Of a stretch of 53,137 nucleotides of DNA, positions 16,988 through 18,207 are shown one piece after another (position 1 is the first letter of the stretch; each line of letters opens with the position of its first letter). Under the pieces are notes generated by a model, which was given only the letters and a program-made list of their open reading frames with translations, was not told the origin of the DNA and did no database searches. This DNA is from a virus (lineage: Duplodnaviria; Heunggongvirae; Uroviricota; Caudoviricetes), in IMG/VR virus record IMGVR_UViG_2645727867_000003; one strand, written 5' to 3'. The translations under genes and the position numbers were made by a program.

Positions 16988-18207
16988 TTTCCGCCTCCTG
17001 CATCCCGCCCACGTTTTGCAGCCAGGGTCCAGGCTGATGAATGAGCTTCTCCGGGTTTATCACCGGTCATACTGTTGCAGTGCCACAGCGAGCCCCCCCA
17101 TGTCACCGTATCGCCGGGGTGGTAGGTTTCACCGGCTCTGAACACACCGCGGTAGAGCATCACCGGCAGGGAAAATGTTTTTTCCGTACGCTGACCGCTG
17201 CTCTGCCGGACCACCACAGAGAACAACCGTTCACCCGTCATACTGACGTCAATATCCGCCACCCCGTCAACCAGGCATTCCCATCCCCGCATCCCGTGCG
17301 TTTTTTCATACGCCCGCCAGAGTCCGCCCTGGTGTGTGGCATACGTGCCCCGGGGAAAGGATTTTTGATCGTCAATGGCGGGGAGTATTTCCAGTGCCGT
17401 GGCATCACGCCCGTCCTGCGGAGCCGGCAGGGCACTCACCGCATCCAGAACCGCCTTCTGCAGAACATCCGGATCGTAGTCTCGACCATCACGCGGAACA
17501 GGAATATGGCTTACCGCCTCCTTCACCATCTGTTCAAGCATCGGATGCACATCATCCGGGGTGATACTTTTACCGTCTGCCGGCAGCGGAATATTTGCGA
17601 CAGCATCATTCACCGCCTTCTGCAGAACATCGGGATCATAGTCACGACCGTCGCGCGGAACAGGAATATGGCTTACCGCCTCCTTCACCATCTGCTCAAT
17701 CATCGGACGCACATCATCGGGAGTAATACTTTTACCGTTCGCCGGTACCGGTATTTTCCCGACAGCATCATTCACCGCCTTCTGCAGAACATCGGGATCA
17801 TAGTCACGACCGTCGCGCGGAACAGGAATATGGCTTACCGCCTCCTTCACCATCTGCTCAATCATCGGACGCACATCATCGGGAGTAATACTTTTACCGT
17901 TCGCCGGTACCGGTATTTTCCCGACAGCATCATTCACCGCCTTCTGCAGAACATCGGGATCATAGTCACGACCGTCACGCGGAACAGGGATATGGCTTAC
18001 CGCCTCCTTCACCATCTGCTCAAGCATCGGACGCACATCATCGCCCGTCACGCACTTCTGTAATACCACAGACAGGGAAGCCAGTTTTTCTTCAAACGTT
18101 TGTGCCTGCGCGGCTATTTTCCCCTCAAATGTGCGCTGTAAATCCGCCAGCACTGCGGAAAATTCTTCACCCAGCGCACGGATAATGGACAGTTCACGTT
18201 CATTCAT
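16984..18207 (-). CDS. head-module protein of unknown function containing four tandem 54-aa repeats
   Basis: Repeat DDVRPMIEQMVKEAVSHIPVPRDGRDYDPDVLQKAVNDAVGKIPVPANGKSITP occurs about four times. The DNA repeat is 162 bp (about 17404-18042). Confidence 0.55.
   Translation of the reverse strand: MNERELSIIRALGEEFSAVLADLQRTFEGKIAAQAQTFEEKLASLSVVLQKCVTGDDVRPMLEQMVKEAVSHIPVPRDGRDYDPDVLQKAVNDAVGKIPVPANGKSITPDDVRPMIEQMVKEAVSHIPVPRDGRDYDPDVLQKAVNDAVGKIPVPANGKSITPDDVRPMIEQMVKEAVSHIPVPRDGRDYDPDVLQKAVNDAVANIPLPADGKSITPDDVHPMLEQMVKEAVSHIPVPRDGRDYDPDVLQKAVLDAVSALPAPQDGRDATALEILPAIDDQKSFPRGTYATHQGGLWRAYEKTHGMRGWECLVDGVADIDVSMTGERLFSVVVRQSSGQRTEKTFSLPVMLYRGVFRAGETYHPGDTVTWGGSLWHCNSMTGDKPGEAHSSAWTLAAKRGRDAGGGK

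Follow-up and report, generated by a model that had tools for sequence, protein, structure and literature searches.

The fibritin (wac) of phage T4 has a segmented helical stalk with loops, attaches by its N terminus and is encoded beside the neck-protein genes. SPP1 gp7, Mu F and 80alpha gp44, encoded directly after the portal gene in their respective genomes, are physically associated with the portal. Here we analyzed a 53,137-nt prophage sequence from IMG/VR (record IMGVR_UViG_2645727867_000003, hereafter the window), in which a 407-amino-acid (aa) protein encoded between the portal and the Ad1 connector contains four tandem 162-bp repeats. We consider it probable, although well short of certain, that these repeats form the modular stalk of a fibre-like portal-vertex protein of a Pankowvirus-type prophage, and that the arrangement of portal and fibre as two separate genes is functional.

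Anatomy and length variation of the repeat protein

The protein consists of an N-terminal helix, a repeat region and a C-terminal all-beta domain (Table 1). Tandem Repeats Finder returned a single array (17450-18043, period 162, 3.7 copies, 94% matches, score 1034), a repeat search of the window recovered 300-nt copies at 162-nt spacing, and alignment in protein register resolved four complete 54-aa units. Each unit comprises two half-units of 27 aa, in which a short helix leads into an IPxPxDG loop, giving eight half-units in total, with the motif IPVPRDG accompanied by IPVPANG, IPLPADG or LPAPQDG. These results agree with a first-pass annotation of the sequence, which had described in-frame 162-bp tandem repeats with two IPVPxDG sub-motifs per unit in a head-module gene between portal and connector; the coordinates it gave (17404-18042) were correct except for 9 nt at one end, but its description of four near-identical copies holds for units 1-3 and not for unit 4. 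Three of the 162 nt distinguish unit 1 from unit 2 (98.1% identity) and unit 3 is 91-93% identical to both, whereas unit 4 has ~76% identity to the others, with most of the divergence in its second half. The same four-copy allele is found in the RefSeq complete genome NZ_CP009106.2 (100% identity over 2585 nt). An antisense open reading frame (ORF) of 340 aa (17041-18063, plus strand) also traverses the array; nothing indicates that it is a real gene, and it is a shadow ORF that exists because the periodic repeat sequence lacks stop codons.

To describe the fold, we relied on an AlphaFold2 (AF2) model built from a 53-sequence alignment, as a single-sequence model was uninformative (predicted local distance difference test, pLDDT, 45). 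The N-terminal helix (aa 3-54) was modelled with a pLDDT of about 90 and is presumed to serve in docking or oligomerization. Between this helix and the C-terminal domain, the model contains eight helix-loop units, corresponding to an acidic, proline-rich stalk (net charge -14; 27 Pro, 12.5% proline). The C-terminal domain was modelled confidently (pLDDT 95-98) and comprises two modules with a small three-stranded beta fold that can be superposed on solved chitin-binding domains. Its matches to carbohydrate-binding modules (CBM5/12) and to tail fibres liken it to the end domains found on the tips of phage tail fibres, and by this analogy we infer that it binds glycans.

Searches against profile databases were otherwise sparse. 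An NCBIfam search of the protein yielded nothing meaningful, while a Pfam scan revealed no match to the immunoglobulin (Ig) family, to the Mu F domain (PF04233, E<=0.01) or to the portal fold (PF04860), the last being confined to the upstream 454-aa ORF. Pfam matches to TetR_C_35, DUF4244 and FliG_N were discarded as repeat-driven and low in complexity, with no qualifying stretch. A sequence search of the PDB gave as its sole match a 29-residue CBM-like motif (7b5h, E=0.55). The suggestion that the repeats might be Ig-like is thus contradicted by both the Pfam scan and the predicted helix-loop units, and a scaffolding role fares no better, as the scaffold-like coiled coil of this phage lies in its protease-capsid fusion. 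It is possible to retain the term 'decoration', which had also been proposed, in the loose sense of an accessory fibre.

Copy number differed widely among close relatives, ranging from 1 to 7 units and always changing in whole 162-bp (54-aa) steps. One unit is present in phage Lys8385Vzw (245 aa), two in H84 (inferred from a 2261-nt span), three (353 aa) in IMG/VR loci, four (407 aa) in IMG/VR loci and the window, five (461 aa) in IMG/VR loci and phage BP-4795, six (515 aa) in locus L059 and seven (569 aa) in L060 and L061. Both the expansion and contraction of the repeats among homologous prophages and the extended region of variable length, each anticipated from the window sequence, were therefore recovered by this comparison. 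Four units was the commonest allele among the relatives sampled, a count biased toward four units because the IMG/VR loci were chosen by similarity to a four-unit query. The five-unit protein of BP-4795 (ORF59) has a window-type junction and nearly identical ends, and the seven-unit allele occurs as one contiguous match in six complete O157:H7 genomes (H161-H166), which indicates that high copy numbers are not merely an artefact of draft assembly. In expanded alleles the internal units show 0 nt differences and lie between diverged first and last units (L059 has four identical units), and the 1890-nt flanks are identical among alleles with 4, 5 and 7 units. Together, these features are the signature of recent unequal crossover or slippage. 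As stalk modules prone to recombination, the repeats are otherwise unremarkable.

The length series has practical consequences. For genome assembly the 162-bp array is a hazard, and it could serve as a marker for typing paralogous prophages. Natural alleles with 1-7 units, in fused and split form, make length dependence and topology directly testable. Some of these length or topology alleles occur in phages propagated or induced in the laboratory, such as Lys8385Vzw and the fused, four-unit phage 2851.

Portal adjacency and the fused or split junction

We searched 1.84 billion representative proteins and obtained 5,646 clusters (50% identity) at E<=1e-3, the best 150 of which were analyzed. 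Among these 150, 148 were stand-alone proteins and 2 contained a portal domain, and the C-terminal domain was conserved in 147, nearly always at the extreme end of the protein. Runs of at least six G-X-Y triplets were present in 40 of the 150, beginning at the place occupied by the IPxPxDG loops in Escherichia coli. For example, P0238 has a Pfam Collagen stalk (runs of 8-14 triplets) together with the same end domain and the same position between portal and Ad1, and P0265 has 41 triplets. The window protein itself lacks the long G-X-Y run of collagen (PF01391) and contains only isolated DGR or DGK triplets. Across the wider family the number of P.P..G motifs ranged from 0 to 18, with ~31 aa of added length per motif. 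To judge from these sequences, the family stalk is a hybrid of helical and collagen-like segments, and the collagen runs of the relatives suggest that a window-type protein probably forms a trimeric fibre.

Adjacency to the portal is equally conserved. A homologue is encoded as a separate gene directly 3' of the portal in 7/7 divergent contigs sampled and in Pseudomonas phages PAJU2 and IME307. Some of these gene pairs overlap by 4-14 nt, whereas others are separated by 18 or 54 nt, and the homologue precedes Ad1 wherever Ad1 is present. Database labels for the family include 'portal protein', 'portal protein B', 'pseudogene' and 'hypothetical'. The window protein falls within PHROG 1289 and the C-terminal half of PHROG 2271 (859 positions), both labelled 'portal protein', whereas the portal itself matches the N-terminal half of the latter (Table 1); the label was probably inherited from fused members and does not denote a portal fold. 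These sequences are already in databases but mislabelled, and it is their obligatory pairing with the portal and occasional fusion to it that distinguish the family. A curated family may already exist, as homologues P0001-P0116 carry the precomputed Pfam accession PF28083.1 in their extension part.

Alignment of the window with phages 2851, WGPS6 and WGPS8 located the frame-setting element in a short G tract at the end of the portal gene. Five G residues give two genes (WGPS8 and the window), while six give a single portal-fibre ORF (2851 and WGPS6). We assembled 82 junction-complete loci (80 from IMG/VR, 3 from phage records and that of the window, after removal of 2 with incomplete junctions), of which 51 were split and carried G5 and 31 (38% of E. 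coli-type loci) were fused and carried G6, with no exceptions in either class. The ATG of the fibre gene was kept in 82/82 junctions, including 31/31 fused alleles, and the G run sits 11 nt upstream of it, resembling a Shine-Dalgarno site. Both states were found on identical junction haplotypes, and even on identical 1890-nt flanks. The fused state is annotated as a 'portal' coding sequence of 859-861 aa in phages 2851 and Stx2a_WGPS6 and in strain H105, while the two-ORF state occurs in the window, WGPS8, 1717, BP-4795 and Lys8385Vzw. An A6 run at the stop codon was also considered as the switch and rejected, as the alignment shows the G tract to be responsible and the A run is not conserved.

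Fusion to the portal has also arisen independently. In P0215, which occurs on four contigs from different samples, a 1237-aa protein joins the portal to about 20 units of helix plus LPxPEPLPDI through a long, acidic Ser/Pro linker. In one record (L095, vB_EcoS_phi330, 333-3075), the portal, the fibre and several neck genes are each split into shorter ORFs, which suggests homopolymer sequencing errors rather than biology and calls for caution with G5/G6 calls made from single records.

The RefSeq annotation pipeline (PGAP) marks the window locus as 'phage portal protein, frameshifted', and other curators have used 'portal protein (pseudogene)'. According to these labels, the true gene would be a portal of 859-861 aa from which one G was lost, leaving the 407-aa ORF as a decaying remnant, and the single intact ORF of G6 genomes and the occurrence of both alleles on identical flanks fit such a history. 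However, split-state ORFs were intact in 50/51 loci, which represent at least 15 junction haplotypes, both the ATG and the ATGA overlap are conserved, and the non-repeat parts of split loci are under purifying selection (median ratio of nonsynonymous to synonymous substitution rates 0.22; 39 unique sequences, 691 pairs), at a level similar to that of fused loci (0.25). The 148 stand-alone clusters and the separate genes of distant relatives, one with a 54-nt gap, are further evidence against decay, as is the presence of the split form in the sequenced phages BP-4795 and PAJU2 and in Lys8385Vzw, a mitomycin-induced phage that was purified from single plaques, propagated on strain WG5 and identified as a siphovirus by transmission electron microscopy (PMC7946995). 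Disrupted or truncated extension ORFs were in fact found in 6/31 fused loci versus 1/51 split loci, an excess that we did not treat as significant because 3 of the 6 share one common lesion. We therefore regard the pseudogene explanation as largely refuted and its residual probability as minimal; the two-gene state is probably the normal, functional arrangement, and the 'frameshifted portal pseudogene' label is probably wrong. Another possibility is that the tract is a programmed recoding site or phase switch, at which ribosomes, or replication slippage, would yield both a short portal and a portal-fibre fusion from one genome and set the proportion of plain and extended portal subunits. The -1 frame is open across the tract: in G5 alleles, tRNA-Gly slipping by -1 on GGG would give the exact fused protein, and in G6 alleles a +1 slip would give the short portal. 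In most alleles the rare codons AGG and ATA stand on either side of the tract, fused and split states recur on identical haplotypes, and in T4 C-terminal portal fusions are tolerated only in mixed rings (PMC9958956). Yet TTC AGG GGG ATT contains no canonical X XXY YYZ heptamer, no stable RNA structure lies downstream (z = -0.45), the A-site codon in the window is the common ATT, and a tract of 5-6 G is short for phase variation, which typically involves 7 or more. Intergenic gaps exclude a frameshift fusion in distant relatives, and overall we consider recoding very improbable.

The status of the two-gene state matters beyond this locus. Of the 1247 complete E. coli genomes carrying the locus, many have alleles of G5 length, and a split arrangement that is the family norm and under selection affects how prophages are called 'defective' in O157, ST131 and other lineages.

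Mechanism and location of the putative fibre

In the mechanism that we favour for a portal-vertex fibre, the 54-aa N-terminal helix would dock the protein, presumably at the portal vertex, and oligomerize it. The stalk would be built from 27-aa half-units, whose IPxPxDG loops would be degenerate relics of the collagen G-X-Y runs of relatives, and the distal end would present two CBM5/12-type modules of a glycan-binding kind. Unequal recombination or replication slippage between 162-bp units would add or remove whole 54-aa units, so that stalk length shifts (1-7 units in phages of E. coli) without affecting either the docking helix or the end domain. The ATGA overlaps would ensure expression of the fibre gene together with those for the portal and the Ad1 connector, and the G5/G6 tract determines whether the fibre is made as a separate protein, as in the window, or extends the C terminus of the portal. 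For the stand-alone form we slightly favour projection outside the virion as a whisker-like adhesin. The combination of stalk and end domain reads as an external fibre, most closely comparable to whiskers of the T4 fibritin kind and to collagen-like tail fibres.

Several observations weigh against this picture. In solved portals the crown and the C terminus are located inside the capsid, and an external fibre therefore conflicts with fusions to that end of the portal (PMC9958956). The repeat region was modelled at low confidence (pLDDT 45-66), the Pfam CBM_5_12 match (PF02839; aa 357-387, E=4.3e-4) scored 20.7 bits against a cut-off of 26.2, and the trimeric state is argued from relatives and not from the window protein. 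Some of the copy-number and G5/G6 variation seen in draft assemblies could reflect assembly or homopolymer error, though both kinds of variation are also present in complete genomes and Sanger-era phage records. Literature searches found no functional or structural study of the protein and no proteomic or cryo-EM report placing it in the virion, and those directed at portal extensions, PAJU2 virions, portal frameshifts in O157 prophages and chitin-binding proteins within capsids returned no report on the protein. For the fused form, an external location could be reconciled with portal topology in more than one way: the flexible ~70-aa portal tail possibly threads out of the capsid, the portal-fibre fusion is possibly cleaved, or internal initiation at the retained ATG, with the G run as a possible Shine-Dalgarno site, possibly supplies free fibre.

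The alternative location is the capsid interior, where a free or fused fibre or core, anchored to the C termini of the portal crown, would project into the DNA-filled space. Such a protein could serve there as a core or tether, or it could enter the host at infection, where its CBM5/12 end could bind the glycan backbone of peptidoglycan. Minor head proteins of the capsid interior, such as SPP1 gp7, Mu F and 80alpha gp44, are often the products of genes that directly follow the portal gene, which counts in favour of this placement. A crown-anchored internal fibre is also what two independent portal fusions imply, namely the fusion in 31/82 loci, including phage 2851, and that of P0215 with its own evolved linker in 4 contigs. 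Similar constraint in fused and split loci is expected if both forms are equivalent, and the crown and C terminus of portals face the same interior (PMC9958956). Against it, the coiled-coil or collagen stalks with CBM ends described elsewhere belong to external fibres, the stalk here is strongly acidic, the protein has no Mu F/gp7 domain detectable by Pfam, and the 18-20-unit stalks of P0129 and P0215, if rigid and at a rough estimate of ~30 Å per half-unit, would be too long to fit inside a T=7 capsid. In T4, only about half of the portal positions accept a bulky C-terminal fusion, as determined with GFP (PMC9958956). On balance we view an internal portal-crown fibre as doubtful, and its full form, in which trimeric glycan-binding fibres are tethered to the portal crown inside the capsid as a previously unseen siphophage structure, as unlikely. 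If it were true, release through the tail at infection to grip peptidoglycan might follow, and the state of the G tract would decide whether the tether is covalent or non-covalent.

With more than 5,600 clusters, this family of portal-adjacent fibres with an end domain of the glycan-binding type has no function assigned to it. Its members are candidates for an accessory adhesin of temperate siphophages, Stx-converting ones included, or else for an internal or ejected protein.

Gene neighbourhood and comparison with known systems

The window matches E. coli 94-3024 (NZ_CP009106.2) at 100% and represents a stx-less, long-tailed lambdoid prophage inserted at ompW-trpA. Its relatives include the Pankowvirus-type Stx phages 2851, WGPS6 and WGPS8 and the Stx phages BP-4795, 1717 and YYZ-2008. 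The head module is ordered terS, terL, protease-capsid fusion, 73-aa ORF, portal, 407-aa gene and Ad1 connector, followed by head closure, a gp10-like gene and a tail tube protein with an Ig domain. Two ATGA overlaps suggest that the portal, fibre and Ad1 genes, three portal-vertex components, are translationally coupled (Table 1). In the window, the final ~70 aa of the portal form a low-complexity tail. The protease-capsid fusion, composed of an S78 protease (aa 48-153), a coiled-coil linker and an HK97-fold capsid domain (aa 386-635), accompanies the portal-fibre pair in most of the distant relatives examined, among them PAJU2, L086, L090 and L100.

Table 1. Positions of the repeat protein, its parts and neighbouring head-module features in the window
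Feature	Position	Strand	Description and basis
Prohead protease-major capsid protein fusion	19780..21717	-	645 aa; Pfam Peptidase_S78 and Phage_capsid
Portal protein gene	18204..19568	-	454 aa, HK97-type; Pfam PF04860 Phage_portal, E=1.8e-81; phrog_2271 positions 1-451
G5 tract	18219..18223	-	frame-setting, TTC AGG GGG ATT; alignment with phages 2851, WGPS6 and WGPS8
ATGA overlap 1	18204..18207	-	portal stop / fibre-gene start; read from sequence
Portal-partner fibre gene (putative)	16984..18207	-	407 aa; ORF list; phrog_2271 positions 455-859, E=2.3e-267; phrog_1289, E=2.7e-198
N-terminal segment	18043..18207	-	aa 1-55; single long alpha-helix, 3-4 hydrophobic spacing
Four tandem 162-bp (54-aa) units	17395..18042	-	aa 56-271; protein-register alignment
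Unit 1	17881..18042	-	
Unit 2	17719..17880	-	
Unit 3	17557..17718	-	
Unit 4	17395..17556	-	
C-terminal all-beta domain	16987..17394	-	aa 272-407; two CBM5/12 (ChtBD3)-like modules
ATGA overlap 2	16984..16987	-	fibre-gene stop / Ad1 start; read from sequence
gp6-like head-tail connector (Ad1) gene	16661..16987	-	Pfam Phage_connect_1; phrog_40

Other features of the prophage were noted alongside. The 73-aa ORF (19514-19735, minus strand; phrog_829) is conserved, hypothetical in RefSeq and shares 55 nt with the start of the portal gene, and an HNH endonuclease gene lies directly upstream of terS. The major tail tube protein (14734-15450, minus strand) has a C-terminal Ig-like domain (Pfam Ig_3, Ig_2 and I-set), which places any Ig-type decoration of this phage on the tail and not in the repeat protein. 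In the late region (~25030-35780, mapped from L084), the position corresponding to stx is occupied by genes for tRNA-Ile, tRNA-Arg, a DNA methyltransferase and a carbohydrate esterase of the SASA family (29663-31627), as well as by small ORFs resembling TolA and TonB. Distant relatives carry MptE-like or sialyltransferase-like, methyltransferase and hexapeptide-repeat transferase genes within the head-neck module, following the fibre or head-closure gene (L091, PAJU2, 6454-8397; L086, 8460-10428; L089, 5920-8186; L096, 4472-5880; L098, 6106-7235). This group may represent a cassette for glycosylation of virion proteins, and it is absent from the window.

Among described systems, collagen or coiled-coil phage fibres ending in CBM5/12 (ChiC_BD/ChtBD3) domains, for example those of Agrobacterium phages 7-7-1 and Milano, share the tandem distal domain. 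These fibres, including the 'collagen triple helix repeat' proteins of uncultured phages, also share a repetitive stalk of variable length, and relatives of the window protein contain true collagen. Unlike the 7-7-1 and Milano type, however, the gene lies between portal and Ad1 rather than among tail or baseplate genes, the E. coli stalk unit is a helix plus IPxPxDG without long GXY runs, and fusion to the portal is possible. T4 fibritin whiskers are likened to the protein by architecture and not by sequence, as accessory fibres at the portal/neck vertex, but the window protein has no foldon, while fibritin lacks a CBM end domain and is not known to occur as a portal fusion. The C-terminal barrel of P22-type portals and the T4 gp20 fusions resemble the fused G6 alleles in topology, with a long helical extension of the crown; the P22 barrel differs in being an uninterrupted single helix with neither repeats nor end domain that is not known as a separate gene, whereas here the stand-alone form is the norm. 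SPP1 gp7, Mu F and 80alpha gp44 resemble the protein in being encoded directly after the portal gene but differ from it in domain content, as it has no PF04233 domain and combines a fibre with CBM modules. Finally, T4 Hoc and other repeat-built head decoration proteins have a comparable accessory, non-catalytic and putatively glycan-binding role, but Hoc is built from Ig-like domains and binds the centres of capsomers, whereas the protein described here has no Ig domains and would be associated with the portal vertex.

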